From NCBI GenBank assembly GCA_036336855.1, contig JAYZFI010000052.1:7087-71086 (forward strand): DNA of 64,000 bases, in the 5' to 3' direction. This document shows, one piece after another, positions 1 to 27,055 of this stretch (position 1 is the first letter of the stretch; each line of letters opens with the position of its first letter). The translations under genes and the position numbers were made by a program. Under the pieces are notes generated by a model, which made no database searches, was not told the DNA's origin, and saw only the letters and a list, made by a program, of their open reading frames with translations. Source of the stretch: Candidatus Latescibacterota bacterium. Lineage in GTDB: Bacteria; Latescibacterota; UBA2968; UBA8231.

Positions 1-774
1 GTCGCGAAACAATGTGAAGCCTGTGCTCAGAGCGGCGGGAAGGCTAGGCACGATGGGGAAGTGGAAGTGCAGCGCCTCGGAGCTGAACACGATCAGTGGT
101 ACTGCGAAGCCCACCCACATCACTACTGACTTGAACAAGGCCGGGACTCGGTTCTCACCCTCGCTCTCGATCATCTGCAAGGGCAGCTGCACCATGGGAT
201 AGGCGAGTCGCTCGTGCTGCGACCACTGTCGGTGCAGGATCACGCCCATGCAGATCATCATGAAGCTGAGTACCAGGAAGAACACATACCACGCCGTCAG
301 CGGCGTGATCCACGCCTCCCAGGGGATGGGTTGACCTGAAGGGAGTCCCTCGTGCAGGTACTTCACCGCGAAAAAATCCTGGGGAGTCACCCAGGAGACC
401 ACGAAGGGGACGATCTGCTCGGCCCAATTGTTCTCCGGCGAGGCGTAGTAGTGGAGCCCCGCGGTGACCGGGATCAGGGTTCCGACGAAGGCCTGCGTGG
501 GCACGGCCACTGCCAGCAGCATCATGAAGTAGACGAGGATTAGATCTGCCCTGCTGAGGGCAAATCGTCGACGGATCAAGCCCACTCCGACGTTGAGTAC
601 CAGGACGATGAACAGAAAAAGGAAAACCGCTCCGGGCGACGAGCTGTTGATCGCCATAAACGACCCCTGGAGCATGATCACCGCGTAGGGAGCGCTGACG
701 CCGATGAAGAACGCGAGTGCCGCTCCGAGGCCGACACCCTTCCACGTAAAGGGCGACCGCGAAGGCACGGTCAC
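1..774 (-). CDS. DUF6785/DUF6784-like multi-pass membrane protein (OPT-like putative transporter), 3' end runs off the window; absent from the ORF track
   Basis: Manual translation from GTG at 774 (GTGA overlap with the upstream stop): MTVPSRSPFTWKGVGLGAALAFF...GLHYYASPENNWAE...HRQWSQHERLAYPMVQLPLQM. Clear paralog of 771..2729 and open to position 1. Confidence 0.85.
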   Translation of the reverse strand, partial: MTVPSRSPFTWKGVGLGAALAFFIGVSAPYAVIMLQGSFMAINSSSPGAVFLFLFIVLVLNVGVGLIRRRFALSRADLILVYFMMLLAVAVPTQAFVGTLIPVTAGLHYYASPENNWAEQIVPFVVSWVTPQDFFAVKYLHEGLPSGQPIPWEAWITPLTAWYVFFLVLSFMMICMGVILHRQWSQHERLAYPMVQLPLQMIESEGENRVPALFKSVVMWVGFAVPLIVFSSEALHFHFPIVPSLPAALSTGFTLFRD

Positions 775-2729
775 GATATCTGCATGCCCACGTAGATGAT
801 GTTACCACTCTCGCCCATGATGAAGTCGATGACCGTCCACATGCCTGAGCAGGAGATCTGACCGAGGATGAGACCGAGAAAGAACGGGCGAAGTCGGCGA
901 TACAGGGGGATGCCGCCGTACTTGAGGATCATCGCTTTGGCGCACCAGCCGATGAGGATACTGAACCAGGTCGACCGGATCATGTAGGTGGCGCCGATGG
1001 GGAAGCCGAGGTAATGAACGGGCCACCACAGGAACCGATGGCGCAGGTACATCAGCAACGCCATGACGGCGGCACCAACGCTGGTGAACAGATAGCGAGG
1101 TCCCACTGCGTCCATATCGATATTGGGGCCGACAGGGTTGGTGATCTTGTGAGCGGCGTCGTTGTGCACGAGCTGCCCCAGTCGGTTATAGAACCACCAG
1201 TGCAGGTTGATGCCGCCGTGCTCGTAGGCCATCCAGATCAGCACCCAGATCGAGGCGGCAAGCCCCACGACAATTGCCAGGAGCATCGACCAAAACAACA
1301 TTCGACTACGCACGTCCGCGGAATCTGCCAGTTTCTGCCCGTTGATCGCCGACGCCATCACCATAGTGCGCAAGTCGCCGGCCCATCCGTAGGTGAGGCC
1401 GAGACTAACGATTCCCGAACTGGTGACCACGTCTGTGCCCAGGCTGTTGACGACGACGGGCTGAGCCGTCATCTGGGCGCGGGCGAAGCCGAGGCCGCCC
1501 TCGGCCACGATGCGAGCCAGTCCATAGAACACGCAGAACGCGACGATCAGGAAGATCACTGTCACTTCCAAGGGAACGCCCGACTGCGAGAGCCAGACCA
1601 TGGCGAACAGTGAGGCCAAGGTGAGCACGATGATCGCCTGGCGATAGGACAGGATCTCTTGGCTATCGTCGATAGGCGAGGCAGAGCCTCGCCAAGCTTT
1701 GTCCCAGACGTCCTTGAGGTGCCCTCTCGATGTCCACAGGCCGACAACGACGAGGGCAATCATCGCGCCCATGCCTTGATGCGACACCGTCAGAGAGCCT
1801 TCGGAGAACAACTCGTGTCGGCCCGGCAGGGAGTAGCCGACCATGTTCTCCACCCCCATCTGCAGCATGGCTATTAGGTGGAAGAGCCAGATGCTCATCC
1901 CCACGTCGAGGCTGAGAAAGTAGGCGAGCCCCATCACCGTGAAACTGACGAACAACTGAAAGCTCTGCTGCAGCCGCGGCACGAATAGGTCATGGCTGAA
2001 TTCGATCTCGGGAACGAAAGGGAAGTAGTGGTTGAGCCCGAGAGTACTCAGAGTGAGAAAGGGGATGGTGAAGCCGGCCCACATGATCGGATTGCGGAAG
2101 AACGGGGTCACCACCTCGCCGGGGTTCCCTTGCTCGGCCATGTCCATGGGTAGCTGAACAAGCGGGAACGTGAGTCGGTCGTGGTCGACCCACTGGCGTC
2201 GCACGATGACGGTGATGGCGATCATCATCAGGTAGATGGCGATGATGAAGGTGCACCAGGCCATGAGGGGAACGGCCCAGGCATCCCAGGGAATGGAAGA
2301 TCCTTGAGGAAGACCCTCGAAGAAATACTGGATTGCCCGTTCGTCCTGGGGTACGAGCCAGCTGGTGACGTAGGGGTGGAGGGTTTCGGCCCAATTGTTC
2401 TCCGGCGTTGCGTAGTAGTATAGCGTGGGCAGCATGGGGATAAGGTTTGCCGTCAGGCCCCAGGTAGGGATAGCCGAGGCGAGGATCATCATCACGTAGA
2501 TGATGACGAGCTCCGCTGGCGTCAGTCCCCACGAACGACGGCACAGCTTGAGCAGAGGATTGACGACGCCCACGAGTAGGAAGAACAGAAAGACCGCACC
2601 GGCGGTGATGTAGTCGGATGACATTCCCGCTGTGCGCATTGCCAGCAGGGCGTAGGGAAAGGCGATGTTGATGACGAGAGCCAGGCCCGTGCCGATCAGC
2701 ATGGCCCGGGGAGTGTAGCGTCCGGACAT
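771..2729 (-). CDS. DUF6785/DUF6784-like multi-pass membrane protein (putative transporter, OPT-like)
   Basis: 652 aa with many hydrophobic helices; motifs YYATPENNW, RRQW..DRLTFPLVQLP, WWPVHYLGFP, YGG..LYRR..PFFLGLILG. Confidence 0.75.
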   Translation of the reverse strand: MSGRYTPRAMLIGTGLALVINIAFPYALLAMRTAGMSSDYITAGAVFLFFLLVGVVNPLLKLCRRSWGLTPAELVIIYVMMILASAIPTWGLTANLIPMLPTLYYYATPENNWAETLHPYVTSWLVPQDERAIQYFFEGLPQGSSIPWDAWAVPLMAWCTFIIAIYLMMIAITVIVRRQWVDHDRLTFPLVQLPMDMAEQGNPGEVVTPFFRNPIMWAGFTIPFLTLSTLGLNHYFPFVPEIEFSHDLFVPRLQQSFQLFVSFTVMGLAYFLSLDVGMSIWLFHLIAMLQMGVENMVGYSLPGRHELFSEGSLTVSHQGMGAMIALVVVGLWTSRGHLKDVWDKAWRGSASPIDDSQEILSYRQAIIVLTLASLFAMVWLSQSGVPLEVTVIFLIVAFCVFYGLARIVAEGGLGFARAQMTAQPVVVNSLGTDVVTSSGIVSLGLTYGWAGDLRTMVMASAINGQKLADSADVRSRMLFWSMLLAIVVGLAASIWVLIWMAYEHGGINLHWWFYNRLGQLVHNDAAHKITNPVGPNIDMDAVGPRYLFTSVGAAVMALLMYLRHRFLWWPVHYLGFPIGATYMIRSTWFSILIGWCAKAMILKYGGIPLYRRLRPFFLGLILGQISCSGMWTVIDFIMGESGNIIYVGMQIS

Positions 2730-2750: not shown

Positions 2751-5333
2751 TCAGTAGACCAGGGAGATGGTCTTCAGCAGACGCGTATCGTCGAGACGGG
2801 CGCCGTCGGTATCGGTTACGATCTCGACGCTGAGAATGTAAAGGCCTGGAGGTGGCAGCTCGCCCCCCGAGTCGAGACCGTCCCACGTTACTCGGTAGCT
2901 CCCCGTGCTGACACCCCGCTGCTCGCGCAGGGTGCGCACCCTGCGACCGGAGAGGTTAAAGACCCCTACCTCGACCGGGCTGCCGTCGCCGACTCGGACG
3001 ACGTTGAAGGAGACCACCGCTTCGTCGTTAATACCATCGCCGTTCGGCGTCAGTGCCAGTGACACCGAGGTGTTGGTGATAAGGTGGTCCCTTCCGGTGA
3101 CGCCCACCAAGGTGGTGGTGTTGCCTTCTACGGCTTTGAGGGCGTCGCCTGCGTCCACACGCTGCCATCCTGCCTGCGCGCCTCGTTGCACCGCGGCGCG
3201 CAGCGGGGCACCGGTAGAGAACAGCGCCGTGCGGAAGTCGAGGCGCAGTATCTCAATGCCCGAGCGCGAGCCCACGCTGGGAAAGGAGATTCGTAGGCTG
3301 TCACCGCCTTCGGCGGCAACGGAAGTGGATAGCGCCTCCGGACTGCCGTCTTCGTCGGCGAAGTCCCCCTCCGAGCCGGCGTGCAGTGATTCGAAGGTCA
3401 TAGACATGTCCTCGGGCGCGACGAGCAGAATTTCGTCAAAGCCGGCATCGCTTGAGCCGAATCTGGGGCTCAAGAACAGCGAGAACACGCGCTCGACGCC
3501 GAGGCTATCCACCTGGAAAGGAAAGATCTCTCCCACGACCTGGCTGGCCACCGGATCAGAAAATTGCAGCCGCAGCGAGCGCAGGGTCGCTGTAGTGTCG
3601 GGATTCTCCGACACCATCACGACGCGAATGATGAGGAACTCTCGTGGCGAGGGCGACAGCACCGGGCTGCCTTCGGGGTTGGCGTAGGGCTCGCTCCAGT
3701 CGCTCCAGTCGCTGCCGGGAACCTGCTCGCCGACGACGTCGCCCTTAAAGATCGACAGCAGACGGCCGTGCTGCTTTTCCGTGACCTCGGTGCCATTCTT
3801 GTGGAAGTAGCGCAGCACTTCGCCGAGCTCGTCGCCGGTGCGGGTCTGAATGAGCACGTCCGTGCCGGATGGAGTCTCCGCTTCCCACTCCATGGACAGC
3901 AGGTTACGGCTGCCACTCAGGCGTATCAGTGGCGACTCCAGAGCCACCCGCGGTTGATAGCCCTCACCGTATAACTGGATTTCCGCCAGGTCGGCCTTCG
4001 TCGTGCGCGGTGCCAGCACCCAGCGCAGGCGGAAGAACCTTGCCGCCACAGGGTCGAAGGCGCCGCCTTCGAAGCGGCGGGCGCAGCCCGCCATCTGGGT
4101 CTCCGGAAAGGCATTTACCCACTGAAGAGAACCGTCGGCGGCCAGCGAACCGTTGGAGAGCTCCACGTTGTAATCGCCGAAGCCGCACTTCGACAATCCG
4201 CCGTAGGCGAGGCGATGCGTGTCGACCCAGTAGAACGAGCCCATGTCGAAGATGATCATGCGGTCGAGCTCGGCAGGCGGCGAGTTTGTGCCCGTGAAGG
4301 GTTGGGAGAAGCTCTCCAAATTTCCGTCAATGAAGCCGGTGAGGTTCAGGGTCATCTTCGGCGATTCGGCGAAGCCGCCCCGCTCAAGAGTACCGGAGAG
4401 GATCTCATCCCCCTTGTTCCACACCTGCAGCTCTGCCAACCGAGGCCTTTCGCGCCGGTAATAGCGCACGTCCCCGCGCTGAGACGGATCAAGGAGCTCG
4501 TAAAACTCGCGGTCGATGAGCAGCTCGCCGCCGCCGCTCAGAGTCTTGAAGTAGTCGACGGCACCCTGATTCTGGGCGCTCAGCGTCGCGTACTGCTCTT
4601 GCGTCACCTCTTTACCACGCTCTCCATTGCTGCCGGTGATGATGACCTGCACGAAGCGAACGCCCTCGGCGGCGAGCTCGGGGTCGACATCGGAGAGGGT
4701 GGACAGATCGATCTCGAAACGGCGCTGATCAGTGTTGGGTGTCAGCAACCGGAACACGGTCTTGAACTCTGGCAGGGGCGAGCCTTGAACCTTGACTGGT
4801 TTGAGACCGTCCGAGACCAGCACGTCGAAGAGCAAAAACGGATCTCCCAACTCCTCCCCGACGAATTCGAGGACAATGCGGTCGGCGAACACTAGTCGCC
4901 CCATGTCGAGGATGAACCACCACTGCTCGCCGATCTTGCGGTCGGGGTCGGCGGGATCGGGCTCCCAGAACGTGGACAGGTCGCCGTCGAGCGTGCGTAC
5001 TACGCCGCTGCGGTTGGACACGGCCTGCACCGCGTCAACGAGCTCGATTTCCTCCGGCTCCTTGTTGGCCACCGAACTAGGTGGATGCAGTTGCATGGAC
5101 TCGACGATGTCCAAGACGGCGTTGGTGTTGCCCTGCAGCTTGCGCACCCGCACGCTACCGTCGGGTGCGAACTGCAGAGTGCCGTCGGCGAAGGTCCAAT
5201 CCTGCCAGTGCTGTTGGGAGTTGACGACGACCTGGCTCGCCGTCAGTCGGTAGCCCTGTGCATCCACCGAGGACAGGCTCGCAGCCAGCAGGCCGATGGC
5301 GAAGACGGATATGCGCATAGGGAGTGAATCCAA
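2751..5333 (-). CDS. Secreted class A protein: two discoidin/F5-8-like domains plus C-terminal FlgD-Ig/TIGR04131-like domain
   Basis: Signal peptide; LDGDLSTFWEP, WWFILDMG, LAEIQLYG; C-terminal TPNGDGINDE...FNLSGRRVR...WDG...PPGLY...SLVY. Confidence 0.75.
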   Translation of the reverse strand: MDSLPMRISVFAIGLLAASLSSVDAQGYRLTASQVVVNSQQHWQDWTFADGTLQFAPDGSVRVRKLQGNTNAVLDIVESMQLHPPSSVANKEPEEIELVDAVQAVSNRSGVVRTLDGDLSTFWEPDPADPDRKIGEQWWFILDMGRLVFADRIVLEFVGEELGDPFLLFDVLVSDGLKPVKVQGSPLPEFKTVFRLLTPNTDQRRFEIDLSTLSDVDPELAAEGVRFVQVIITGSNGERGKEVTQEQYATLSAQNQGAVDYFKTLSGGGELLIDREFYELLDPSQRGDVRYYRRERPRLAELQVWNKGDEILSGTLERGGFAESPKMTLNLTGFIDGNLESFSQPFTGTNSPPAELDRMIIFDMGSFYWVDTHRLAYGGLSKCGFGDYNVELSNGSLAADGSLQWVNAFPETQMAGCARRFEGGAFDPVAARFFRLRWVLAPRTTKADLAEIQLYGEGYQPRVALESPLIRLSGSRNLLSMEWEAETPSGTDVLIQTRTGDELGEVLRYFHKNGTEVTEKQHGRLLSIFKGDVVGEQVPGSDWSDWSEPYANPEGSPVLSPSPREFLIIRVVMVSENPDTTATLRSLRLQFSDPVASQVVGEIFPFQVDSLGVERVFSLFLSPRFGSSDAGFDEILLVAPEDMSMTFESLHAGSEGDFADEDGSPEALSTSVAAEGGDSLRISFPSVGSRSGIEILRLDFRTALFSTGAPLRAAVQRGAQAGWQRVDAGDALKAVEGNTTTLVGVTGRDHLITNTSVSLALTPNGDGINDEAVVSFNVVRVGDGSPVEVGVFNLSGRRVRTLREQRGVSTGSYRVTWDGLDSGGELPPPGLYILSVEIVTDTDGARLDDTRLLKTISLVY

Positions 5334-5380: not shown

Positions 5381-6766
5381 TTAGGGAGGGGTGTTCAGGG
5401 GGGCGATCCACGATGCCGCACCGAGGCTCCAGGGCTGGCTGCCGAGGTCAGTTGCGGGATCCACCAGCCGTTGCGCGCGACGCCCATTTAGAGACGCCCA
5501 GACGTGGGCGTAGATCTCGACATTGACTATGCCCTCCTTCTCTAGCTCGGCGGCCACTTTGCGGCAGAACTGGCGGATCAAGTCGGGATGCCGCAGCATG
5601 ATGTCGATCTGCCATGTCTCCAGATAGCGGTCCGGCCGGATCGGCCAAACGAGGCGGCCCGCGCTTGCTCGAGCGACGAAGTGATGGCTCGAGGGAAACC
5701 ATTCCGGCAATCCCTGCTTCAACCGTGCATCCGGTGGCAGGACGCGCTTCTCTCGGAGCATCATCCGCCAGGCGAAGCGATGGCCCTCTTCGGTCCAGCT
5801 GGCGTTGCCCTGATACAGGAAATGGCGCAGCGGCAACAGCAGCTGCACGGCGCAATAGCAGGTCAGAACAGCTAGGCCAGGGCCGGTCAGGCGCGCGCGC
5901 GAGTCGGCTGCTACCGGAACCGCTGCCGCGCCCCGCCAGCGTGAGCGTAGCCGCTCCGGCCAGTCAGGGGCGAAGAACAGTGCCGTGGCGCCGATCATGA
6001 ACCAGGGAAAGACGCCGATCGTAAAGATCACCGCATTGCTGAGGTGGAATGCCAGGGACAGCAGAAAGGCGAAGGGGCGGCTGCGCGCCCACAGCAGTCC
6101 GGGTACCACGAGCAAGTCGAACAGCAGGCCGCCCCAGCTGATGAAGTCGACGAAAATGCCCTGAACTTCCGGCGACGACAGCCAGGTGTTGCAAAAGCGC
6201 TGGGTCAGCCAGCCGGCAACCGGTCCCGACACCAGCCAGTTGGGATCGAGCTTGGCCACGCCGCCGTAGAAGTAGACGACGCCGATCTGCAGGCGCAGTA
6301 GCCAGAGGATCCACACCGGGGCCAGGCGCGCCTCGGTCACCGCGCCTCGACGCACGTCCAGCGACCAGCGGTGCGCCGGCAGCACCGCCAACACTGCGCT
6401 GAGCAGACAGAGCAGGTAAAAATGGTTCTGAAAGGCGGCTCGTTCGACCAGGAAGGTGTAGACGAAGGCCAGACAGAGCAGCATAGCCGACAGGCGATAG
6501 TGCCAGCCGACGGCGACCAGCAGGCCAAGGCCGGCGATGGCGAGGAACACGGCGTGCATCCAGGGGTCGGGCACTGCCTCGACCCAGCCCAGCCCCGGAT
6601 AGGTGAAGTGGAAGGAGGGTCGCGCCCACACGTGCTCCACCGTGCCGGACACTAGGTTGAGCACGGCGTCGACGCACATGATGAGGCCGAACCAGATCCG
6701 AAAGAACGCGAGGAAGCTGCTCTCAACGGGCCGCGAGAGCCGATCTCGCCAGCTGTGCACGGGCAT
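5381..6766 (-). CDS. HTTM-domain protein, vitamin K-dependent gamma-carboxylase homolog
   Basis: FRIWFG, QNHFYL, VYFYGGVAKLDPNW, IGVFPW, WTEEGHRFAWRMM, SLNGRRAQRLVDP. Confidence 0.88.
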   Translation of the reverse strand: MPVHSWRDRLSRPVESSFLAFFRIWFGLIMCVDAVLNLVSGTVEHVWARPSFHFTYPGLGWVEAVPDPWMHAVFLAIAGLGLLVAVGWHYRLSAMLLCLAFVYTFLVERAAFQNHFYLLCLLSAVLAVLPAHRWSLDVRRGAVTEARLAPVWILWLLRLQIGVVYFYGGVAKLDPNWLVSGPVAGWLTQRFCNTWLSSPEVQGIFVDFISWGGLLFDLLVVPGLLWARSRPFAFLLSLAFHLSNAVIFTIGVFPWFMIGATALFFAPDWPERLRSRWRGAAAVPVAADSRARLTGPGLAVLTCYCAVQLLLPLRHFLYQGNASWTEEGHRFAWRMMLREKRVLPPDARLKQGLPEWFPSSHHFVARASAGRLVWPIRPDRYLETWQIDIMLRHPDLIRQFCRKVAAELEKEGIVNVEIYAHVWASLNGRRAQRLVDPATDLGSQPWSLGAASWIAPLNTPP

Positions 6767-16003: not shown

Positions 16004-16019
16004 ATAATGGTACTCCATC

Positions 16020-17102: not shown

Positions 17103-17131
17103 ACCATACAGCGGCTGAGGGCGGGTGTCAA
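17103..17131 (-). promoter_or_regulatory. sigma70-type promoter for the 300 aa gene
   Basis: Minus strand TTGACA (17131-17126), 17-nt spacer, TATGGT (17108-17103). Confidence 0.7.
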
Positions 17132-17186: not shown

Positions 17187-18941
17187 CTATCCTTGCCCTG
17201 TCGGAGCCACTGGCGTCGCCGTGGCCCACGGCATGGCTGAGCGTCCCAGGAAGCGCCGGCGGGCTGTGGACTCGAGCTCCTCCACGCGGTCCTCCAGTTC
17301 TATAGCTATGTCTATATCTCCTTGATTTTTATGGATTTGCGACAGAAAATGAAGAGCCTTCACGTAATCCGGGTCAAGCCCGATCGCGGTGTCGAGGTGA
17401 TCGATGGCCTCCGCCGTCATTCCCAGGTTTACATAATCCACGGCAAGATTGAAATGCGCCGGAGACATGTATGGATCGAGCTCGATCGCCCGGTGGTGAT
17501 ATTCGACGGCGCGCTGCCGGTTTCCGTTCGCTGAGAATGCGATCCCGAGATGGGTGTAGGCCCGTGCGTAGCCAGGGTCCACGTCGATGGCCCTCAGGTA
17601 GGCCCGGATCGCCTCCTCGATGCGTCCCTCCCGCATGCGTGCCACGCCGAGGTCATCGTGGGCGCTGGCCAACGACGGCGTGAGTCGACTCAGATACTCG
17701 CGGGCCTGTGCGTCGGTCTGCGAGTAGATAGTGTCCGTCCACGCCAGCAGCAGGATGGGAATCCCGAAGTAGACGACCATCTTGCCCGTCTCGAATCCCC
17801 ACTGCAACTTGGCCGATTGCTGTATACGGTCGCGAACGCCTGCCACCAGACCGCGAGGCTCCGGCTTCGAGTCGGACTCCACCGGGCTGTCACCATCGAC
17901 GAGGTTCTGGCGAATCTCCCGCTTGCGCACCTTCCACATGAAGCCGTCGTAGTAGTAGTGTAGGAAGGCGGATGCGGCGATGATGACCTTGGCCACGTCA
18001 TATATGACGTGGCTGCCGGTGGCGCGGGCCATGGCCTCGATGCCACCATAGGTGAAGATCAGCGCCACGTAGATGAGGACCAGCCGCAGCCGTCCGTCAC
18101 TGAACAGGTAGCGGAACCACGATCCACCGAGATCGCGGGAGCGCTTGAGAACGCCGCGGTTGTAGATCCAGACGATGGCGAAGTACTGGATGTCGTGAGC
18201 CAGGGCGACCACGGCGTAGCCGAGAATGATGTCCTGGAGCACGATGTAGGCGTAGTAGACGGTAGCAAAGGTGGTGGCGGTGATCGCCAGCTTGGGCCAC
18301 ACCACCGGGCCGCCGGCCATGCGCTCGCGGATCAGGCTGAGGCCGTAGACGATGCTAGTGATGACCGCTACGCCGAGCACGAGATCACGTAGGAGTTCGA
18401 TGTGGGTGGGATCGAGCTGGCTGTAAAGGCCGAAGCCATAGCGGTGGCAGCGCTCGAGGAAGTTGATCAGGTAGTGGGGGCTGGCGACCACGACGTAGCC
18501 GAACCAGGTCAGCACCAGCATCCAGTCGAGTCGGGCGCGAAGCCGGGTCGGCCGCCGCCGCTTGACCTCGTAAATCCTCATGAAGCCGTAGTGCTGCATG
18601 AGGAAGTGCCACATGTCCCAGAGGGCGAGGAAGATGAAGAACCCCAGGTGGCCGTTGAAAACGCTCCAACCGACGAAGCCGGTGATGGCCACGGGGGCGA
18701 CGATGAAGCGCACCTTGTAGCGCCGAAAAAGCTCGCGCTCGCCGTAGGCGCGCATGAACCCCGGAAGGTGATGGCCCACGGCGAAGAAGGCCAGCACGAA
18801 CCAGGCAATGTCAGCGGAGTCGAAACGCTGGGCGGCGACCAGCAGGACACCCAGGCAGAGCAGCGGTGTCCCGATGAAGAACAGCGCATCGCATCGGGGG
18901 CTGATGATCCATCCCTTGCTAGGGGCAACCGTGGTGGTCAC
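17187..18941 (-). CDS. Integral membrane protein with His motifs fused to C-terminal TPR repeats
   Basis: Multi-TM N-terminal part with GHHLPG, WHFLMQHYG, HDIQY, HYYYDGFMW; about 4 TPRs. Start set at GTG 18941 to avoid overlap with the upstream gene (track start 19040). Confidence 0.7.
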   Translation of the reverse strand: MTTTVAPSKGWIISPRCDALFFIGTPLLCLGVLLVAAQRFDSADIAWFVLAFFAVGHHLPGFMRAYGERELFRRYKVRFIVAPVAITGFVGWSVFNGHLGFFIFLALWDMWHFLMQHYGFMRIYEVKRRRPTRLRARLDWMLVLTWFGYVVVASPHYLINFLERCHRYGFGLYSQLDPTHIELLRDLVLGVAVITSIVYGLSLIRERMAGGPVVWPKLAITATTFATVYYAYIVLQDIILGYAVVALAHDIQYFAIVWIYNRGVLKRSRDLGGSWFRYLFSDGRLRLVLIYVALIFTYGGIEAMARATGSHVIYDVAKVIIAASAFLHYYYDGFMWKVRKREIRQNLVDGDSPVESDSKPEPRGLVAGVRDRIQQSAKLQWGFETGKMVVYFGIPILLLAWTDTIYSQTDAQAREYLSRLTPSLASAHDDLGVARMREGRIEEAIRAYLRAIDVDPGYARAYTHLGIAFSANGNRQRAVEYHHRAIELDPYMSPAHFNLAVDYVNLGMTAEAIDHLDTAIGLDPDYVKALHFLSQIHKNQGDIDIAIELEDRVEELESTARRRFLGRSAMPWATATPVAPTGQG

Positions 18942-18966
18942 AAGGGTTTGAGCTGCGCTCTCGCGG

Positions 18967-21945
18967 CTACAGTCCGGCAAAGACTGAGAGGAAGACGAGT
19001 CCTGACGTTCGTTTCTGCGCTCCCCGCTCCACCCGCTCAAGTCGGCGACGGTCGTAGCGGATGCCCATCTGCGTGGTCAGATCGTAGCCGAGATAGGCGT
19101 GGCGGTTGGTCAGCTGGACGGCGAACACCGACCCACCAAAGTCACCGGTGAGGACGCCGTCGTCCAGCTGGTCCTCTTTGACTCCCAGCTCGTGAAACAG
19201 CCGCTGCTCGAGGCCGGTCTCGATGATGGTGCCGCGCAGCACCGGCAGGCGCAGGAGCAGGATACCGAGCCCGTCCCAAGAGCGCCGGCGCTCCAGTAGC
19301 CGTGAGAAAGGCGTCTGACGCACGTATTCGCTCTTGACCCGGGGCACCAGTTGGACGATGCCGAGGTCGAAGAGGTATTCCGCCTTGTTGATGAAGCCAA
19401 ACAGCCCCGACGCTTCGCGGCCGTTGCGCTCCTCGAGGCCGAGAGGATCGAAGGTGACGATGCGCTCGCCCTGTTCATCGAGCACGAACTCGCCCTCGTC
19501 GTTGCGCAGAAAATCGCGGTCGGTGTCCACTTGGCGCCAAGTCTCCCACTTCAGACGGTGGCGGTGACGCATTTCGCCCCGGTGCCCAGACCAGTCGGCG
19601 TAGAAGGTGTTGATCCACGTGTCTTCTGCCGCCAAGGGATCGGGGACGCGCTGGTTGCGGCCCTGCGTATCCGCGGGTAGACCGAAGGCGGTCCGCGGGA
19701 TGCCCCACTGGGACAGGTCGTCGGGGATGTCGTCTTCGGCGCGACGCAGCATGTCGTAGATGCGCAGCCGGCCGAGGCGCGCCCAATTCTTGTCGTACGA
19801 GGTCAGCGCGTAGGTTGTCTTGTTCTCGCGATGGGTCTTGCGCTGATCCTGCTGGAGCCTGCCGATGGTGATCTTGCCCTCGGCGCGCACGACGATGCTG
19901 GCGAAAGCGTTATAGCCCCAGTGATCCTTGCGGTACGGGTAGTCGGGGCGATCGTCGTTCTCGAAGCGCTCCGCCCAGCCGTTGTTGTTGAGATCGATGC
20001 CGAACAGGAACTCCGGTCGGTCTGTGTTGTAGCGAAGGAAGGGCTCGTCGTAGTCCGGGAACAGGTTCTCGCGCTCTCCGGTGCTGTTCTGGTTGAAATC
20101 GGAGATGAAGTCGCGATTCTCGTCGTAGCCGGGGAACACCGCCGGATCGGCGACGCCCTCAGGACGGATCCGGAAGGTCTCTCCCGGAATCCGAATTAGG
20201 CTGCCCTGGAATAGCCGCTTCTGATCGGGGTGACGGTCGTTGTCGTCATTGTCGTCGACGAAGTCATAGAACTGGTCGGTCGACTCTGGCGAGTAGTCAG
20301 CAATGCCGCGGCCGTCGACGAGTAGGATCCGGGTGTCGTACTCGTCCTCCATGCCGAAGCCTTCGAGGAAGAACCGCCAGGGGCCAGAACGTCGCGACAG
20401 GTTGAACATCCAGCCGTAGCCTTCTTCGTCGCCTTTGATCCCGGTGATGGCCCGGTGCTTCTTGCGGCTTGTGTCGGGATACTTCCGGTACTCGTTGGCG
20501 ACGTTGAATTCGCCGTAGAAATCCCAGCCACGGAAGTCGCGCACTTCTGCGGTGATGCCGTATACGTGGCGCGCTGTGGGAATGCCGTAGTCGAAAACGA
20601 CCTCACGCTGGTTAAGCCGGCTCTTGATGTTGCCGTCGGCGCGCTCTACCACCAGGAACTGCGGCTGCCCTACTGGATTGGTCTGACGATCCGACGAGAC
20701 CTCGATGCGGTAGTCGTTGGCCACCACCACACGGAAGCGCACATTCTTGATGCGGGTAATGGCGTCCTCGGCGTCCGACAGCGACAGATTCAGGGCCTGC
20801 TGCAGCAGTAGTCGCAAGGTGCCGGTTTCGCTCTCCTCGTCGGTCAGCGGCGCCAGCGGATAGGCGAGCTCGATCGCATCGGCGCCGTCGGCGGTGAGGA
20901 AGCCATCGCGCAGCTTGCCGCCGGAGCGCTCGGCGCGCCAGCCGATGCTGCTGCCCACGATGGTCGTGTCCCGCGGCACTGACTGCACGGAATCGCCAAC
21001 CTGCACGTCCGTCATCAGGGCCAGGGTGATCTCGGTGTCCTCGCTGAACAGCATCGCTCCGCCCTCGCCGTCCTCCGGCGAGTCGTCCGAAAGCCGCACC
21101 ACCAGTAGCTCGAGTCGGCGGTCGAGCTGACCGCTGGTGAGCTGGCCCTGGAAGGGGTTGTGGCGGAAGCTTTCCCGCGAGCCGTTGCTGTGATGGGCGT
21201 TGGCCAGGGTAAACCCCAGCGTCACCTTCTGGTGCGGATTAACCTCGAGCCGGCCACCGGTGAAGCTCGTCGTGTTCTCCAGCGACGCCGTGGGAATCTC
21301 CGAGTCGATGGTCACCCCCGGCAGCGACGCCCGCGAGAACAGGCCGGTGGCACGCCAATTACGGCCCGAGACGTTGGTCATGACGCCGTTGAAACCCGCC
21401 TTGCGGAAGGTCATTGGCGTCAGCGTGGTGTTAATCTCGTCGCCGATGATGATGGAGTAGTTGTAGTCGCCGGCTTCGTCGGCAGAGATCACCATGCGCT
21501 GGAAGAAGCTGCCGTAGCGTCCGGTCTTGGTGAGACGGCTACTCTCGAAGGCCAGCGGCTGCGTTTGCCGCCAGTCGTAGATCAGCCAGCCTCGGGTCGT
21601 GAGTTCACCGAAATCGTCGTAGAAGTAGAAGCCCTCTTGCTGGCGATCGAGATACCGTAGGTAGCGCTCCTTGGCGTAGTTCGTCGTCGTCCACTGTCGC
21701 CGGCCGTACTCCTGGAACAGCTCCTCGGGCATATACCAGCGGTGAATGGATGGATCCAAGGCATCCATCTGCACCGTCGTGCCCGCTGCCCGGTAGGTCC
21801 AGTGATCGCCGGTACGAACCCCCAGGCGGTCGCCGTAGTCCTCGTTGGCACCCACTGTAGCGACCGACGTCAACGTCGCCGCGATGGCCAGATTCAGACC
21901 CAATCGGGATCGCAGTGCAGTATGTGAGGACAGCACTGCGCTCAT
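18967..21945 (-). CDS. Large secreted/outer-membrane protein, paralog 2 (acidic insert, predicted beta-rich C-terminus)
   Basis: 992 aa; signal peptide; DYGDRLGV, GWLIYDWRQ, LSDDSPEDGEGGA, FVDDNDDNDRHPD, PEFLFGIDLNNNGW; ends LVFLSVFAGL. Confidence 0.6.
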   Translation of the reverse strand: MSAVLSSHTALRSRLGLNLAIAATLTSVATVGANEDYGDRLGVRTGDHWTYRAAGTTVQMDALDPSIHRWYMPEELFQEYGRRQWTTTNYAKERYLRYLDRQQEGFYFYDDFGELTTRGWLIYDWRQTQPLAFESSRLTKTGRYGSFFQRMVISADEAGDYNYSIIIGDEINTTLTPMTFRKAGFNGVMTNVSGRNWRATGLFSRASLPGVTIDSEIPTASLENTTSFTGGRLEVNPHQKVTLGFTLANAHHSNGSRESFRHNPFQGQLTSGQLDRRLELLVVRLSDDSPEDGEGGAMLFSEDTEITLALMTDVQVGDSVQSVPRDTTIVGSSIGWRAERSGGKLRDGFLTADGADAIELAYPLAPLTDEESETGTLRLLLQQALNLSLSDAEDAITRIKNVRFRVVVANDYRIEVSSDRQTNPVGQPQFLVVERADGNIKSRLNQREVVFDYGIPTARHVYGITAEVRDFRGWDFYGEFNVANEYRKYPDTSRKKHRAITGIKGDEEGYGWMFNLSRRSGPWRFFLEGFGMEDEYDTRILLVDGRGIADYSPESTDQFYDFVDDNDDNDRHPDQKRLFQGSLIRIPGETFRIRPEGVADPAVFPGYDENRDFISDFNQNSTGERENLFPDYDEPFLRYNTDRPEFLFGIDLNNNGWAERFENDDRPDYPYRKDHWGYNAFASIVVRAEGKITIGRLQQDQRKTHRENKTTYALTSYDKNWARLGRLRIYDMLRRAEDDIPDDLSQWGIPRTAFGLPADTQGRNQRVPDPLAAEDTWINTFYADWSGHRGEMRHRHRLKWETWRQVDTDRDFLRNDEGEFVLDEQGERIVTFDPLGLEERNGREASGLFGFINKAEYLFDLGIVQLVPRVKSEYVRQTPFSRLLERRRSWDGLGILLLRLPVLRGTIIETGLEQRLFHELGVKEDQLDDGVLTGDFGGSVFAVQLTNRHAYLGYDLTTQMGIRYDRRRLERVERGAQKRTSGLVFLSVFAGL

Positions 21946-24788
21946 CGGTCGACACCGGCGTACACGGTGATGAAGGTCGTGGTTTCGTTGCTGCTCTCCG
22001 ACGCCAGCTTAAAGGTGCCGTTGTCACGCTCCTTGACCAGCTCGGTGCGCGTGCGTCCTAAGCGAATCCCCACCTGTGTGGTCAGGCTGTAGCCAAGGTA
22101 GGCGGAGTTGTTGGACAGCTGCAGGGCCATCGTTGTGGAACGGAAGTCACCGGTGTCCGTGGTGATGCCGAGGTCGACCATCTCGTCCTCGGCCGCCACC
22201 AGGTCGCGGAACCAGAATAATTCGACACCGGCCTGCAGAACGGTGTGATTGAGCGCCGGCAACTGGGCTAGCAGGTAGCCGGCGCCGGCCCAGTGCTTTC
22301 GGTCGTCATCGCCGCGCACGAAGGCGGTCTGTCGCAGGTACTCGCTCTTGAAGCGGGGCTGCAACGTCACCGTTCCCAGGTCGTACTCGTAGTCTACCTT
22401 GTTCACCAAGCCGAGCAGGCTGGAAGCATCGGAGATAGGCAGGCCATCAATAGTGCGCAGGTTGCTCTTGGCCTGGTGGAACAGCTGCCACTTGACCTTG
22501 TTGCGCAGCCGCAGGTTGTCGATGCCGGTGTAGTCGAAGCCGAGGAACGACTGGTTCACCCAGGTGTCCTGGGCGGGCAGGATGTCCTTCACCACCGGCT
22601 GGATCGGCGGTGCGTCCACGAAGGGGGTGGGCTCTCGGCGGTCGTCTGGGATGTGGTCCTCGACCCGCTTGAGCATTTCGAAGACGCGCAATCGACCGAT
22701 TCCCGGGAAGCTGCGCTCCGCTGTTAGCATGGCGTAGTTGACGTTGCTGCTGCGATCCTCGGAAATCATCTCCTCCTGCGAGCGACCAATTGTGAGGCGC
22801 ACGTCCGGACGCAGGTGCAGACCGCCGAAGATGTTGCGGCCCTCACGGTCGGGTTTGTAGGGATAGTCTGGGACGTCGTCGTCCTCGAAGCGGTCGATCC
22901 AGTCGTTGTTGTTGAGGTCGATGCCGAACAAGAACTCCGGCCGGTCGACCTCGTAGCGCAGGAAGGGCTCCTCGTAGTCGGGAATGAGGTTGGTGACCGT
23001 GGAGTTGTCGTTCTGGTTGAAGTCGGAGATGAAGTCGTTGTTCTCGTCCCACCCGGGGAAGATGAGGCGGTCGGAGATGGTGCCGAAGCGCACCCAATCC
23101 GGGTAGCGATCCTGGTCGTCGTTGTCGTCCACGAATTCGTACAGATGCCGCTGCGCCTCGTCGTAGTTGATATCGCCGTTGGGATCGGTGACGAAAGCGG
23201 TGGTGGAGTAGGCGTCGTCGATGGAGTAACTCTCGCCGTAGACGAACCAGGGATAGTTCTGACGGTTGACGTTGACATACCAGCCGTCCGAGCTCTCAGA
23301 AGAGATCTCGTGACTGTCACCAGAGGCGAAGGTGGCGGCGTTGGGATACTGGAAGTAGCGGGTGTTGCGGTCCCACTCGCCGTAGACGTTGAAGCCCCAG
23401 ATGTCGGAGCCCTCGATGGTGAAGCCGCCGACGAAGTTCGCCGTAGGCAGCCCGTAGTTGAACTTCACCAACGACAGGTTGGAGATATCCTGCACGTTGC
23501 CCTCGGCGCGACGCAGGGTGATGAGTGCCGGCTCGGAGTTGTCGATAGTTTCGGCGCTCAGCGGCGGTGACGGCATGGCACGCCGGCCCGTCTGCCGATC
23601 CGACCACATCTGCACCTTGTAGTCGTTGGCTAGCACGTACTCGAACTTCACGTCCACGATCGACGTCGGATCGGGTCCGATGTAGGCCGGGTCGTTGAAG
23701 TCGTAATTGAGGACGATGCGCTCGGCGCCGTCGGCGGCGATAAAGCCGGTGCGCTCGAAACCGCCGAACACGATGGGCCATTCAGCGCCAGATCGCACCA
23801 CTTCTTTGAGAGTGCTGCGGGTCTCGCGGCCGGTCTCGAAATTACGGCTGACGATGACGACATCATGGCGGAACAGCGCCGCACCGCCTTCGCCGTCCTC
23901 CGGCGAGTCGTCGCTGAGAATGATCGCAATCGCGGTCAGTGGTGAGCTGCTCTGCCCAGCGGTAGAGCTGCCGGCGATGAGGTCGCCGCTGAACAGGTCG
24001 AGCGTGGTGTTGACGTGACGCGCCGCCACTGCCGTGGCGCCGAACTCGACGAAATCGCCTACTTGCACTGTGCCGCGGCTGCCGAACATGGTCGTGGCAT
24101 TAGTGCGGGTTTCAGCACCTTGCTCGGTGGCGCCGGAGATCGGATCGCTGACCCTGGAGGCAAGGATCGTTGCCGCGTACTTGTCAGCCATGAAGTCGAT
24201 CTGCACGCCGTTGAAGGTCGGCTTCGAGAATGTCATCGGCGTCAGCGTGGTCCGCAGCTGATTGCCCACGGTGATGGCGTAGTGGTACTGGCCCTTGCTG
24301 TCGCCACCGACGGTGACCGCCGAGAACCACTGGGTGAAGCGCTTATCCTTGAAGATGCTGTTGCCCAACTGCTGGGGCTGGTCCTGACGCCAGTCGTAGA
24401 TCAGCCAGCCGCGGCCGATGTAGTTGCCGTAGAAGTCGTAGAAAAAGTCGCCTTCGAGCGCCGTGTCGACGTAGCGCTCGTAGTGGTCGCGGGCGTAGTT
24501 GGAATACTCCCACTGCCGCCAGCCGAACTCGGTGTACAGCTCCTGGGGCACGTACCACTTCTTGATCGAAGGGTCCATGGCTCCAAACATCACGCCCGGG
24601 CCTGTAGGTTCGAAGGAGACCGTGCCACCTCGCTGTACGCCCAACCGGGCGCCGTAATCCTGAGCGTGTGAGGACGGGGGCGCCGTGAACAGCAACGTGG
24701 TGACCGCAAGGGACAGCGCCGCCCATCGCACCGCGGCGCGATGCCCAATGTGTGTGACGATTCTACCTGGCAATGTCTGGCCTCCCAT
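21942..24788 (-). CDS. Large secreted/outer-membrane protein, paralog 1
   Basis: 948 aa; shares all motifs with 18967..21945; ATGA coupling to it; alternative TTG start at 24773 with GGAGG. Confidence 0.6.
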   Translation of the reverse strand: MGGQTLPGRIVTHIGHRAAVRWAALSLAVTTLLFTAPPSSHAQDYGARLGVQRGGTVSFEPTGPGVMFGAMDPSIKKWYVPQELYTEFGWRQWEYSNYARDHYERYVDTALEGDFFYDFYGNYIGRGWLIYDWRQDQPQQLGNSIFKDKRFTQWFSAVTVGGDSKGQYHYAITVGNQLRTTLTPMTFSKPTFNGVQIDFMADKYAATILASRVSDPISGATEQGAETRTNATTMFGSRGTVQVGDFVEFGATAVAARHVNTTLDLFSGDLIAGSSTAGQSSSPLTAIAIILSDDSPEDGEGGAALFRHDVVIVSRNFETGRETRSTLKEVVRSGAEWPIVFGGFERTGFIAADGAERIVLNYDFNDPAYIGPDPTSIVDVKFEYVLANDYKVQMWSDRQTGRRAMPSPPLSAETIDNSEPALITLRRAEGNVQDISNLSLVKFNYGLPTANFVGGFTIEGSDIWGFNVYGEWDRNTRYFQYPNAATFASGDSHEISSESSDGWYVNVNRQNYPWFVYGESYSIDDAYSTTAFVTDPNGDINYDEAQRHLYEFVDDNDDQDRYPDWVRFGTISDRLIFPGWDENNDFISDFNQNDNSTVTNLIPDYEEPFLRYEVDRPEFLFGIDLNNNDWIDRFEDDDVPDYPYKPDREGRNIFGGLHLRPDVRLTIGRSQEEMISEDRSSNVNYAMLTAERSFPGIGRLRVFEMLKRVEDHIPDDRREPTPFVDAPPIQPVVKDILPAQDTWVNQSFLGFDYTGIDNLRLRNKVKWQLFHQAKSNLRTIDGLPISDASSLLGLVNKVDYEYDLGTVTLQPRFKSEYLRQTAFVRGDDDRKHWAGAGYLLAQLPALNHTVLQAGVELFWFRDLVAAEDEMVDLGITTDTGDFRSTTMALQLSNNSAYLGYSLTTQVGIRLGRTRTELVKERDNGTFKLASESSNETTTFITVYAGVDR

Positions 24789-24838: not shown

Positions 24839-27055
24839 TCAGTATGCGACGGCGATGACGCCGACTTCGGACTCCTCGCCAGTGCCTGCGTCCAGGGTAA
24901 CCCGGAACACATAGTTGCCCGGCGGAACGAGCTCACCGTTTTCTCCCAGACCGTCCCAGGGCCTCTGGAAGCGTCCCGAGTTGTCGAAGTCGTTCCGTAG
25001 GATGCGGACGGTGCGTCCCGAGAGATCGCAGATGACGATCTTCAGCGGCGTCAGTCTTGCGATGTTGGTAATGTCGTATTCGATGTGGACGTCGTCGTTA
25101 ACGCCATCGCCATTGGGGCTGAGCACCCGCGGGTGGGCCCGCACGTTGGTCAGCAGGTCGCGCGCGATAGAAACCGCCACGGACAGGTTCTGATCGTCCG
25201 GAGTTCCTACCGGCGTGATGTCGGAATCTTCGACGTCGAAGGCGCTGAGGTCGTCGGCGTTGCCTGCTGTTGCCGCCTGCGTCAGGGTAGCGCTGGCATC
25301 GGCGTTGCGAGCGCGCACGGTGAAGGTTGTACCAAAGCGCAACACCGCCGTTTCTAACTCGACAGTTATCAGCGCATCATTCTCATCGATGAGGGGAAAG
25401 TCAAGTCCAAGCAGATTGTCCTGCACGTCGACGATACGGACGTCGCCAACGGCGGCGGGCAAGTTGTCGAGATCGGCGGCACTGAAGTCGACCTCGGTAG
25501 TGCCCGTTGCGCGAGTGATGCGCACACGACCCACACGGGATACCTTCAGCGGTGTATCGATCTCGAGGCCATCGAAGCCGCGATCGGTGCTTTCGCGCAG
25601 GTTCGTGCGTACGGCGAGCACGAAATTCGTTTGCTTACCTACGTTAGCCTGGCGGGGAGCGATCTCCCCGATTAGCGATTCCGCGTAGGGCGGGGTAAGC
25701 ACGTCGAAGGCGAAGGCGCCTATGCCGGTGGCGGCCTCGAAGTCGTCGCTGAAGAAGTCAATACTGAACTGGAAATAGCGCCGTGGGCTCGGCGACGCTA
25801 GAGCCACCCCCGCCGTGGGATCGCCGATCTCCTCCTCGGTCACGGCTCCTACCGAGCTGTAGGGGGGAGACCAGCCGCTCCAGTCGTCGGTGTCGTCGCG
25901 TGCTGGACCTCGATCCTCGTTGCGCAACCGCTCCCATTCCGATTTGGTAAGGGTGGCCTGCGCCTTCTGATCGAGAGGCAGGGAGCGGAAGTGTTCGCGC
26001 GCCACTCGAACATCAACATCTTCGTTGTCGAGCACAGTGGCGATGAGTTCGCTGAGCTCGGTGCCTTCAACGGCTTCGGCGTCTTTCCATGGAACGTCAG
26101 GTCGGCGGAACTGGGTACCGGCGGCACCGGCCCCGGCGCCTCCGACTCGGAAGATGAACTCACCGGGACGCTGCTTGTTGTATTCCACTGGGTCGGGGTC
26201 GCGGCCCGAGCGCGTACGAATATTGATCCGCGAGCGTGCGGGATCGCCCTGGGGTTGCTGCACCCAGCGAAGATTGCCCAGTAGTGCGAGATCACCGAAG
26301 TCGAAGACGTTCGACAGGTAGCTGGCCTCGGGCACGAAGCCGGTGCCGAAAATTTGAAATTCCGCGATCTCGAAGCCCGCTGGGGTCAGCGACTTGAGGC
26401 GCACGAAGCGCACGTACTGAGGCTCGACGCGAACGTCGACTACCTGGTCTTCGTTAGTGGCCTCGATAGCTACGGTCTGCAGAATCGGCGTTCCCTCGAA
26501 CTGCGATTCTGGCGTGCCGTCGTTGACGAAGATCTCGTAGGCGCGCATAAACTCGTTTTGAAAGGGAAATTCCGGTGCCGGATAGCTGTCGAGGGCGTTG
26601 CGCGGGAAGAACCGGAACCGGTTGATTCCGAAACGCGCTCCCAAGTCTATGTCGATGAGAATGCCGAGGACGCGGGCGCTGGCCGTACCGCTCGAGGCGC
26701 GCAGGTCCAGGGATGTCTTCCCGTCGTTGTCAATGATGAGCGGAAGCGAGCCGCGGATGCTGATCGTATTCGGCGAGGTGATCTCACCGCCCCGCAACTC
26801 GGAGTTGAGGCCGAGAGCGATATTAGCGGTGGTGTCGGCGCGCTGCGGAAGAATCCAGTTGGACAGTCCTTCGGGATCGAAGTCGATGACGCCGCCTGGG
26901 GCGTTGGTCACCTCGACACGGGACGAGGAGCGGATGGCTACAGCATCGACGTCGCCAGCTCCAGTTTGCCAGCTGAGCCCCCCCTCACCTCCGGCGACGA
27001 TGGTCTGTGCGGAGGCCGTCGTGGCCATAAACGCCACCAACACCGCCGCCCTCAT
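24839..27055 (-). CDS. Secreted class C discoidin-like/FlgD-Ig C-terminal domain protein
   Basis: Start ATG 27055 (MRAAVLVAF, signal peptide); IDLGARFGINRFRFFPR, EIAEFQIFGTGF, SPNGDGVNDD; ends IAVAY. Confidence 0.72.
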   Translation of the reverse strand: MRAAVLVAFMATTASAQTIVAGGEGGLSWQTGAGDVDAVAIRSSSRVEVTNAPGGVIDFDPEGLSNWILPQRADTTANIALGLNSELRGGEITSPNTISIRGSLPLIIDNDGKTSLDLRASSGTASARVLGILIDIDLGARFGINRFRFFPRNALDSYPAPEFPFQNEFMRAYEIFVNDGTPESQFEGTPILQTVAIEATNEDQVVDVRVEPQYVRFVRLKSLTPAGFEIAEFQIFGTGFVPEASYLSNVFDFGDLALLGNLRWVQQPQGDPARSRINIRTRSGRDPDPVEYNKQRPGEFIFRVGGAGAGAAGTQFRRPDVPWKDAEAVEGTELSELIATVLDNEDVDVRVAREHFRSLPLDQKAQATLTKSEWERLRNEDRGPARDDTDDWSGWSPPYSSVGAVTEEEIGDPTAGVALASPSPRRYFQFSIDFFSDDFEAATGIGAFAFDVLTPPYAESLIGEIAPRQANVGKQTNFVLAVRTNLRESTDRGFDGLEIDTPLKVSRVGRVRITRATGTTEVDFSAADLDNLPAAVGDVRIVDVQDNLLGLDFPLIDENDALITVELETAVLRFGTTFTVRARNADASATLTQAATAGNADDLSAFDVEDSDITPVGTPDDQNLSVAVSIARDLLTNVRAHPRVLSPNGDGVNDDVHIEYDITNIARLTPLKIVICDLSGRTVRILRNDFDNSGRFQRPWDGLGENGELVPPGNYVFRVTLDAGTGEESEVGVIAVAY

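Follow-up and report, generated by a model that had tools for sequence, protein, structure and literature searches.

Our analysis of a 64,000-nt stretch of the Candidatus Latescibacterota bacterium genome (contig JAYZFI010000052.1, in our numbering G000:C52:7087-71086; this whole stretch is hereafter the window) indicates that the cluster of 13 minus-strand open reading frames (ORFs) covering its positions 1-27139 contains a conserved, multi-component set of envelope genes that is lineage-specific and maps to no characterised system. This is what the first-pass annotation of the same DNA, made from the letters alone, had proposed, and the gene order it gave agrees with the ORF listing, as do its labels with Pfam and NCBIfam. 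In the middle of the set stand two large paired proteins, bar1 and bar2; around them are secreted proteins with tails of the type IX secretion system (T9SS) type, named A, B and C, and a small secreted protein of 300 amino acids, p300. Our leading reading, held tentatively and rated somewhat short of an even chance, is that of a lineage-specific glycan capture module, in which T9SS-delivered lectin-type proteins and a tagged CBM9-like protein are arranged around a paired outer-membrane core. The source genome is marine, amounts to 3.57 Mb and is 79% complete. The features of the cluster are the following, in order of transcription:

24839..27139, minus strand: C, secreted; common A/B/C core and T9SS-type C-terminal tail; immediately upstream of the bar pair
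21942..24788, minus strand: bar1, 948 amino acids; putative outer-membrane protein; member one of the pair
18967..21945, minus strand: bar2, 992 amino acids; paralogue of bar1; member two of the pair
17187..19040, minus strand: HisTPR, 617 amino acids; polytopic membrane protein; cluster of invariant His residues, tetratricopeptide repeats (TPRs) at the C-terminus; accessory
17103..17131, minus strand: promoter-like site of p300, TTGACA, 17 nt, TATGGT; 10/12 consensus matches
16069..16971, minus strand: p300, 300 amino acids; secreted, CBM9-like predicted fold, probable mature N-terminal His, C-terminal tag
16005..16068, minus strand: structured 3' end of the p300 mRNA; 8-bp GC hairpin with UUCG loop
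13983..15986, minus strand: B1, member of the A/B/C superfamily with T9SS-type tail
12028..13944, minus strand: B2, member of the A/B/C superfamily with T9SS-type tail; 50% identical to B1
9353..12025, minus strand: A1, discoidin N-terminal extension, common core and tail
6766..9339, minus strand: A2, same build as A1
5381..6766, minus strand: HTTM, 461 amino acids; homologue of vitamin K carboxylase, inserted at this locus
2751..5333, minus strand: A3, same build as A1
771..2729, minus strand: D1, DUF6785 and DUF6784; polytopic inner-membrane protein, putative permease
1..774, minus strand: D2, N-terminal part of a second DUF6785 gene that extends before the window; full length of 647 amino acids at L002:5917-7860

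The genes are packed closely: bar1 and bar2 overlap by 4 nt, A2 and HTTM by 1 nt, D1 and D2 by 4 nt, and the remaining gaps measure 2-82 nt, with the sole exception of 215 nt ahead of the p300 gene. Beyond D2 the neighbours converge from the plus strand, and there the cluster ends downstream. Scans of the 13 proteins against the Pfam and NCBIfam libraries gave no TonB-dependent receptor, ABC transporter, SusD or glycoside hydrolase domain, and the absence of these four, claimed from the letters alone, is thereby confirmed.

Conservation of the set in relatives had been fixed beforehand as the test of the proposal, and the core families indeed cluster. The series C-bar1-bar2-p300-B is kept in 8/8 orthologous loci, which come from 8 genomes, all of other genera than the source; one to three A genes are found in 7/8, and in the eighth the contig ends. 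We further collected 79 loci with flanks of ±10 kb solely by similarity to bar1/bar2, 60 of them labelled Latescibacteria/Latescibacterota and most others Gemmatimonadota/Gemmatimonadetes. The A/B/C core occurs in 76/79 of these bar loci, two or more genes with this core in 65/79, and in 63/79 such a gene is the immediate upstream neighbour of a bar gene. At least two bar genes are present in 72/79, the p300 family in 49/79 (an undercount, as the greedy ORF picking let a longer antisense ORF displace p300 in at least 5 loci) and the C-terminal p300 tag in 38/79. The order of the genes varies between locus types, as in p300-A-BC-BC-bar-bar-x-D-D, p300-BC-A-BC-bar-bar-PPIase and BC-bar-PPIase-bar-BC-A (PPIase, peptidyl-prolyl isomerase). 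Such differences argue for selection on co-location, not for inheritance of a single arrangement. The clustering of the core families is not a matter of chance.

The same association is met in more distant copies of the module, of which a genome holds 4 to 47 matching stretches. The source genome has 7 bar genes in 3 loci, and a gene with the A/B/C core and a C-terminal domain (CTD) of the secretion type lies directly upstream in 3/3. Among 13 paralogous loci of distant genomes, with one to four tandem bar genes each, an A/B/C-core gene with CTD is found in 6/13 and any CTD protein in 11/13. A small barrel of ~310 amino acids sometimes lies between the CTD and bar genes; in one locus of another family (L042) the protein between them matches PorP_SprF (2.9e-9, 37.3 bits, cut-off 22.3), and a FadL/PorV-like protein occupies the same place in another. 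An all-TPR protein of ~1080 amino acids often follows. One paralogous locus has a pectate-lyase/glycoside hydrolase-type protein adjoining bar, and another has CTD proteins of the beta-helix/chondroitinase-B type. In the other two bar loci of the source genome (G000:C20:54424-74423 and G000:C53:30001-50000; L076, L077) we observed an all-TPR protein of ~1085 amino acids with BamD/YfiO-like repeats, and one of the two also has DUF4159 and DUF5683 proteins.

The distribution of the module within the phylum is uneven in a regular way. Searching 168 genomes of the phylum (families labelled f1, f2 and so on) with the bar profile gave 106 positive genomes, among them 75/75 in f1, the family of the window, and 30/31 in f5-f13, against 0/31 in f2, 0/3 in f3, 0/22 in f4 and 0/5 in f14, so that bar is absent from all 61 genomes of these last four families. 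The p300 profile, searched in a sample of 70 genomes at a threshold of 1e-8, was found in f1 (10/10), in all genomes of f5, f6, f9, f10 and f11 and in 5/6 of f12, and in none of f2 (0/21), f4 (0/3) and f14 (0/5). Presence and absence of bar and p300 agree in 10/13 families.

The two bar proteins are paralogues, with 37% identity across ~1000 columns, i.e. over their whole length, in the all-against-all comparison. In a FastTree phylogeny of 67 tandem pairs, the label of first or second gene needs 2 changes, compared with a mean of 45 for shuffled labels, and 0/500 shuffles came as low; near-copies among the sequences inflate this test. Support for the two-clade split is starred, and the split spans several locus types; bar1 falls into the position-1 clade and bar2 into the position-2 clade. 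Judging from this tree, the two clades appear to be ancient and to have been kept as a pair, which fits a heteromeric pair.

Both proteins begin with an N-terminal hydrophobic leader peptide and have no helical transmembrane segment. Cysteine is missing altogether from bar1 and, beyond residue 40, from 133/181 ORFs of the bar family, and a crude scan for amphipathic strands flagged 34 overlapping beta-like segments, which is weak support. Taken with a SurA/PrsA-type chaperone linked to the locus, the leader, the missing helical segments, the mostly missing cysteines and the amphipathic segments are consistent with an outer-membrane protein. Neither bar1 nor bar2 has any Pfam or NCBIfam match, and the bar profile gave no more than two chance-level rows when compared with solved structures. 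A search of 1.84 billion proteins gave 734 representative clusters for the family, of which 216 have E <= 1e-30; none of the homologues listed has a Pfam domain precomputed, and where a source name is given, which is seldom, it reads 'hypothetical protein'. The neighbours of the family in the Atlas are unnamed Latescibacterota and Gemmatimonadota clusters. Mean-field direct coupling analysis of 211 bar sequences (effective number 141) with a reduced alphabet was dominated by gap artefacts and gave no usable strand pairing. The most conspicuous region of the family is an invariant central acidic block, VDDNDD...FPGxDEnxD...PDYxEPF...NNNGxxDxxExD..PDYPY, located in bar1 at residues ~553-647 (window ~22850-23130, minus strand). 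We take its repeated D/N motifs to resemble thrombospondin-type repeats of the calcium-binding type. It is the sole bar region touched by any curated model, namely SlpA_C (PF21620), which is matched by 11/48 bar members (best 2e-7) and by none in the source genome, bar1 included; no scan reported an SLH domain.

The proteins A, B and C have in common a C-terminal region of 400-500 amino acids, with 24-29% identity in the all-against-all comparison. C is 26-29% identical to A and B over 330-690 amino acids, the three A proteins are 46-49% identical to one another and the two B proteins 50%. The first-pass annotation had separated three classes of CTD proteins; by these alignments A, B and C rather appear as one superfamily with differing N-terminal extensions, and their likeness goes beyond the tail. 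According to Pfam, C-terminal tails of the FlgD_ig/CHU_C type are carried by C, B1, B2, A1, A2 and A3: CHU_C exceeds its cut-off of 27 in C (28.5 bits) and B2 (29.5), FlgD_ig its own in B1, B2, A1 and A2, and the scores of the NCBIfam models TIGR04131 and TIGR04183 on the tails are below their cut-offs. The discoidin model F5_F8_type_C (PF00754, cut-off 28.2) reaches 27.3 bits in A1 and 28.4 in A2; when 37 members of the superfamily were scanned singly, PF00754 was found in 34/37 (E <= 0.1, best 4.8e-10) and FlgD_ig in 37/37. Comparison of A1 with solved structures returned only FlgD, via the tail, and hhalign gave weak hints of internal repeats in an A protein (E ~0.002). The common core is described here as putatively beta-rich and the proteins as lectin-like.

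These proteins would be exported by T9SS, components of which the first-pass annotation had proposed to look for elsewhere in the genome. SprA_N (122 bits) and PorU (566 bits, cut-off 420) were indeed found above their cut-offs, while PorV is weak (54 bits against a cut-off of 250). The A and B tails match positions ~1000-1085 of the PorU model, its tail region. We rejected bar as a core part of T9SS itself: SprA is present in 160/168 genomes, including the families that have no bar (30/31 in f2, 3/3 in f3, 22/22 in f4 and 5/5 in f14). At G000:C39:26996-31512 the gene of PorU, the T9SS sortase, and a nearby short fragment of DUF6785 are separated by a single small ORF.

The third component, p300, has no Pfam or NCBIfam match and does not reach the CBM9_1 cut-off, and neither the protein nor its family profile matched any solved structure. 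CBM9_1 matches 1/28 members of the p300 family, at 0.0037. Nevertheless, the Atlas feature scores of p300 to CBM9-like proteins are 0.97, 0.96 and 0.93, and its structural likeness to Atlas clusters qualifying for the CBM9_1 name is TM 0.63-0.69 (template-modelling score); on these models, its fold appears to be CBM9-like. In the family alignment of 28 sequences the signal peptide ends in AxA and is directly followed by H-x-P-E/P-G in 27/28, therefore mature p300 would begin with His. Further histidines, H128 (in DADHSGG), H155 and H224, are invariant or near-invariant, and there are many Trp residues. The N-terminal His and the further ones presumably recall a metal-binding 'histidine brace' or haem-binding DOMON proteins.

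The protein ends with a tag, TAVExDSWGxIKASFxx (window 16069-16120, minus strand), which neither Pfam nor NCBIfam picks up. In the source genome the tag is found on just 2 ORFs, both at bar loci: p300 and a protein of 437 amino acids (G000:C53:32347-33660, plus strand) that has a true CBM9_1 domain (7.5e-12) and whose gene immediately precedes another bar gene. Small secreted ORFs with the tag (SWGxIKxxF plus 1-2 residues) also occur in bar loci of distant families (L038, L040, L041).

The p300 gene is also transcribed in the sea. Contigs at least 99% identical to it were present in 4/4 marine metatranscriptome runs from 4 studies, and seawater DNA runs also hold the stretch. One end of the RNA lies at 17077-17082 in 4 runs and the other at 16011-16013 in 3, with Illumina adapter past both ends in one run; this delimits a discrete RNA of ~1065 nt, and the adjoining genes gave only few short contigs. 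The hairpin at the 3' end has -30.5 kcal/mol (z = -3.26), and 0/200 shuffles were equally stable. The p300 RNA is thus either a separate transcript or a stable product of processing, and the 13 genes are not simply one mRNA species. The locus stretches that yielded no RNA contigs are not to be read as silent.

The remaining genes of the cluster belong to the module loosely or not at all. HTTM is a complete protein, with an HTTM domain (1.6e-73) and a VKGC lumenal domain (5.4e-39), and homologues were found in 17/76 genomes of the family of the window, the closest 51% identical. It is encoded in 0/8 orthologous and 0/79 bar loci, and the 1.5-kb flanks of HTTM loci in 11 other genomes contain no bar, A/B/C-core or CTD gene. 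By position it is co-transcribed at this locus and it stands outside the conserved module; on these linkage counts (0/8, 0/79, 0/11) we rejected this carboxylase homologue as a component, which the first-pass annotation had taken it to be. HisTPR is present as described there, although as a general component it does not stand: it is found in 4/8 orthologous and 18/79 bar loci, all of one locus type. Its C-terminal part belongs to TPR families by Pfam, and its N-terminal 440 amino acids have no Pfam match and no match to sequences of solved structures in PDB. Here all of 19 sequences keep H90, H91, H145, H150, H189 and H282, which lie in four motifs (GHHLPG, WDxWHFxMQHxGF, SPHYL, AHDIQY). This membrane part has the look of an undescribed family of metal-dependent membrane enzymes.

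The DUF6785 proteins, proposed as paired transporters, turned out to be loose associates and not a fixed part. Pfam assigns DUF6785 (2.7e-130) and DUF6784 (4.5e-30) to D1; its comparison with solved structures gave nothing, and we found no publication on DUF6785. Such a gene lies within 10 kb in 29/79 bar loci, pairs in 5/79, and it directly follows in 3/8 orthologous loci. The source genome has 14 copies, some in unrelated contexts. Just before the window, at L002:2048-5914 (plus strand), are a third DUF6785 gene, a p300 paralogue named p339 and an M19 dipeptidase. Here p339 is placed between the other two, and three related genomes also have it paired with DUF6785.

Beyond the cluster the window contains further relevant features:

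27278..29089, plus strand: FG-GAP/ASPIC protein (CRTAC1-like); further copies at 30905-32776 (minus strand) and 35560-37323 (plus strand)
29184..30896, plus strand: PrsA/SurA-like protein with two parvulin domains (Rotamase_2 and Rotamase by Pfam)
46019..50541, minus strand: second A-B pair, A at 47977-50541 and B at 46019-47980

The isomerase and FG-GAP genes appear, by their homologues, to be conserved neighbours that the coordinates of the first-pass annotation had overlooked. The isomerase has homologues in 59/79 bar loci, and in one locus type they separate the two bar genes; for one homologue the best solved relative is PrsA. FG-GAP/ASPIC homologues, one of which has CRTAC1 as its best solved relative, are found in 30/79. 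Other recurrent neighbours are a TPR protein (20/79), a pentapeptide-repeat protein (15/79) and proteins of 429, 383 and 344 amino acids without a name. The second A is 44-52% identical to A1-A3 and the second B 46% identical to B1/B2. Among the genes that separate the two A/B clusters, 10 kb from the cluster described here, an FAH-family gene (37351-38193, plus strand) is closest to L-2,4-diketo-3-deoxyrhamnonate hydrolase (8gsr, 1.9e-94), which suggests a non-phosphorylative deoxy-hexose pathway. The idea that the system feeds nearby catabolic genes thus receives an indirect hint of rhamnose type, and the enolase named with it was not confirmed: the candidate ORF of 428 amino acids (43751-45037) has no match among solved structures at E <= 1e-10.

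If the glycan capture reading is correct, the cluster would be one copy of a repeatedly duplicated, Latescibacterota-specific envelope unit, similar to a polysaccharide utilisation locus (PUL) but built from different parts. The six lectin-like A, B and C proteins would be exported by the T9SS of the genome and held at the cell surface, where p300 would join them, probably docked through its tag to the large bar proteins. Assembled with the help of a dedicated periplasmic PrsA/SurA-like isomerase, bar1 and bar2 would form the membrane-embedded core, either an entry channel or a platform holding the binders, and DUF6785 permeases, where present, may carry the products across the inner membrane. 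That the ligands would be sugars is suggested because of the domain types, the FAH gene, the lyase-type neighbours in some paralogous loci and the views on the phylum published in PMC4454575. That genome study assumed that sugars cross the outer membrane of Latescibacterota via non-specific porins.

The logic of the module resembles that of surface-capture loci and of T9SS cargo-anchor pairs, and no core part of it belongs to a described family. With SusC/SusD-type PULs it has in common the many divergent copies per genome, the gene for a large outer-membrane protein beside non-catalytic surface binders and, sometimes nearby, inner-membrane permeases and sugar-catabolic genes. However, it has neither a Plug/TonB-dependent receptor domain nor SusD, no lipoprotein signal was seen on the binders, which bear T9SS tails instead, and its membrane protein is a pair from two clades; carbohydrate-active enzymes are missing from the 13 genes and present beside bar in some paralogous loci. 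The other comparison is with the SprB/SprF type, in which T9SS cargo with a type B CTD has a PorP/SprF-like barrel encoded next to it. Here, too, the gene of a CTD-tagged protein lies directly upstream of genes for putative outer-membrane proteins, SprA and PorU are present and PorP_SprF is found in a paralogous locus. In contrast, bar has about three times the size of PorP/SprF and no profile relation to it, the locus has no PorP/SprF, and the tails fit FlgD_ig best and score at or below the cut-offs of the type A and type B models. The p300 fold is like that of CBM9/DOMON-like sugar binders, and its tag-bearing relative on C53 meets the CBM9_1 cut-off, whereas p300 itself has no Pfam match and differs by its C-terminal tag and by the His conserved at the mature N-terminus. 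As for the vitamin K-dependent gamma-carboxylases and their bacterial HTTM relatives, the protein of 461 amino acids has the full HTTM and lumenal domains, but in the other genomes examined it is unlinked to the module.

Several observations weigh against glycan capture. The barrel fold of bar1 and bar2 is itself no more than probable, a reasonable reading of composition and context. The usual C-terminal signal of barrel proteins does not appear to be general in the family, with an aromatic terminal residue in 15/181 ORFs and an aromatic among the last three in 24/181. We rejected bar as a TonB-dependent receptor or a relative of SprA, as no profile relation exists in the source genome (with its six Plug proteins hhalign gave a probability of 0.05). 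The nearest Pfam-named Atlas cluster, DUF6029 (0.89, with 161 features in common), is no more than a lead. With the C-terminal barrel of Deinococcus/Thermus SlpA the family has the D/N-rich acidic block in common, but the SlpA_C matches cover only model positions ~232-305 (~70/656), by position this block, and all are below the cut-off. In f7, f8 and f13 bar is present and p300 has no match at 1e-8. Neither the A/B/C core nor p300 has a demonstrated ligand, Pfam finds no glycoside hydrolase or lyase among the 13 genes, and other DUF6785 genes of the source genome lie beside peptidases and amino-acid enzymes, which points to peptides rather than sugars. Furthermore, the 79 loci are not independent, several being from the same genome or from close relatives, and the RNA data are assembled contigs from runs chosen for holding part of the stretch, so that they cannot rank the genes.

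One would argue that the module is a platform for surface display or adhesion: the bar pair would anchor the T9SS-exported A, B and C and the tagged p300 in the way PorP/SprF-like barrels hold type B CTD cargo, giving cells that live on particles an adhesive or protective coat, without passage of any material. This is possible, and although we rate it below an even chance it is nearly as likely as glycan capture. The gene bearing CTD and A/B/C core directly upstream of bar in 63/79 loci would be expected of it, as would the PorP_SprF protein of L042 and the FadL/PorV-like protein in paralogous loci; Pfam finds no degradative enzymes in this locus, DUF6785 is missing in 50/79 loci, and the acidic block, resembling calcium sites, is the sole likeness to a model of an S-layer anchor barrel. 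However, the PorP/SprF neighbour invoked by the first-pass annotation is not here. The locus contains no such gene and neither does the source genome by Pfam (this genome is 79% complete and the control genomes were also without a match); the pattern is present in the paralogous L042. In addition, many divergent tandem copies (4 to 47 stretches) are more typical of substrate-specific uptake than of a coat, and some loci have sugar-catabolic and lyase-type neighbours.

Two further explanations seem improbable to us. According to the one, the binders would harvest proteins or glycoproteins and DUF6785 would import the peptides, in line with the DUF6785 genes beside the M19 dipeptidase, an M28/PA-FtsX giant, the E2/E3 components of branched-chain 2-oxoacid dehydrogenase and an aminotransferase, and with the place of p339 between a DUF6785 gene and the dipeptidase. 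Yet the 13 genes include no peptidase, such domains as can be recognised (discoidin, CBM9-like) are of types that bind carbohydrates, and the link between DUF6785 and bar is loose (29/79 loci). According to the other, for which the chances are just as slim, there is no single machine, and envelope genes rich in paralogues are co-located by duplication and shared regulation while remaining uncoupled. HTTM, HisTPR and DUF6785 are present in some loci and missing in others, a promoter-like site and RNA ends of its own set p300 apart, and the source genome has A/B/C-core genes away from bar on contigs C19, C35, C45 and C55. Against this, the co-occurrence persists through rearranged orders and several paralogous locus types, the two bar clades stay together, and bar and p300 have a presence pattern in common in 10/13 families. 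A bolder version of the envelope machine is rather unlikely, if slightly less so than these two: the bar pair, receiving lectins delivered by T9SS and the tag-docked, CBM9/DOMON-like p300, would found an undescribed class of heteromeric, Latescibacterota-specific outer-membrane machines, the histidines of p300 would bind metal or haem, and polymer capture would be oxidative or redox-assisted. Partners on the membrane side would be HisTPR and the quinone-dependent HTTM, the latter in this genome.

Latescibacterota are a widespread, uncultured group with a presumed part in the breakdown of algal polymers. Few gene sets are as expanded as this module in many of their genomes, and no named family stands at its centre; our search found no literature description of it and none on Latescibacteria in connection with type IX secretion. 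If the module plays the part of Sus-type uptake or cargo anchoring in this phylum, it would explain how these bacteria meet their substrates, and surface capture coupled to type IX secretion would have been solved a second time, independently. Marker genes for ecology in metagenomes and metaproteomes would also be gained, for which the apparently abundant p300 transcript is an obvious candidate.

A last observation concerns the surroundings of DUF6785 elsewhere in the source genome. On contigs C21, C36 and C38 the DUF6785 gene is followed by that of a protein of 1486-1599 amino acids and then by that of a protein of ~830-890 amino acids, of no known family; the large protein of C38, the only one of the three that was scanned, is FtsX/MacB-like. 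On C53 the M28/PA-FtsX giant adjoins a DUF6785 gene on the opposite strand.

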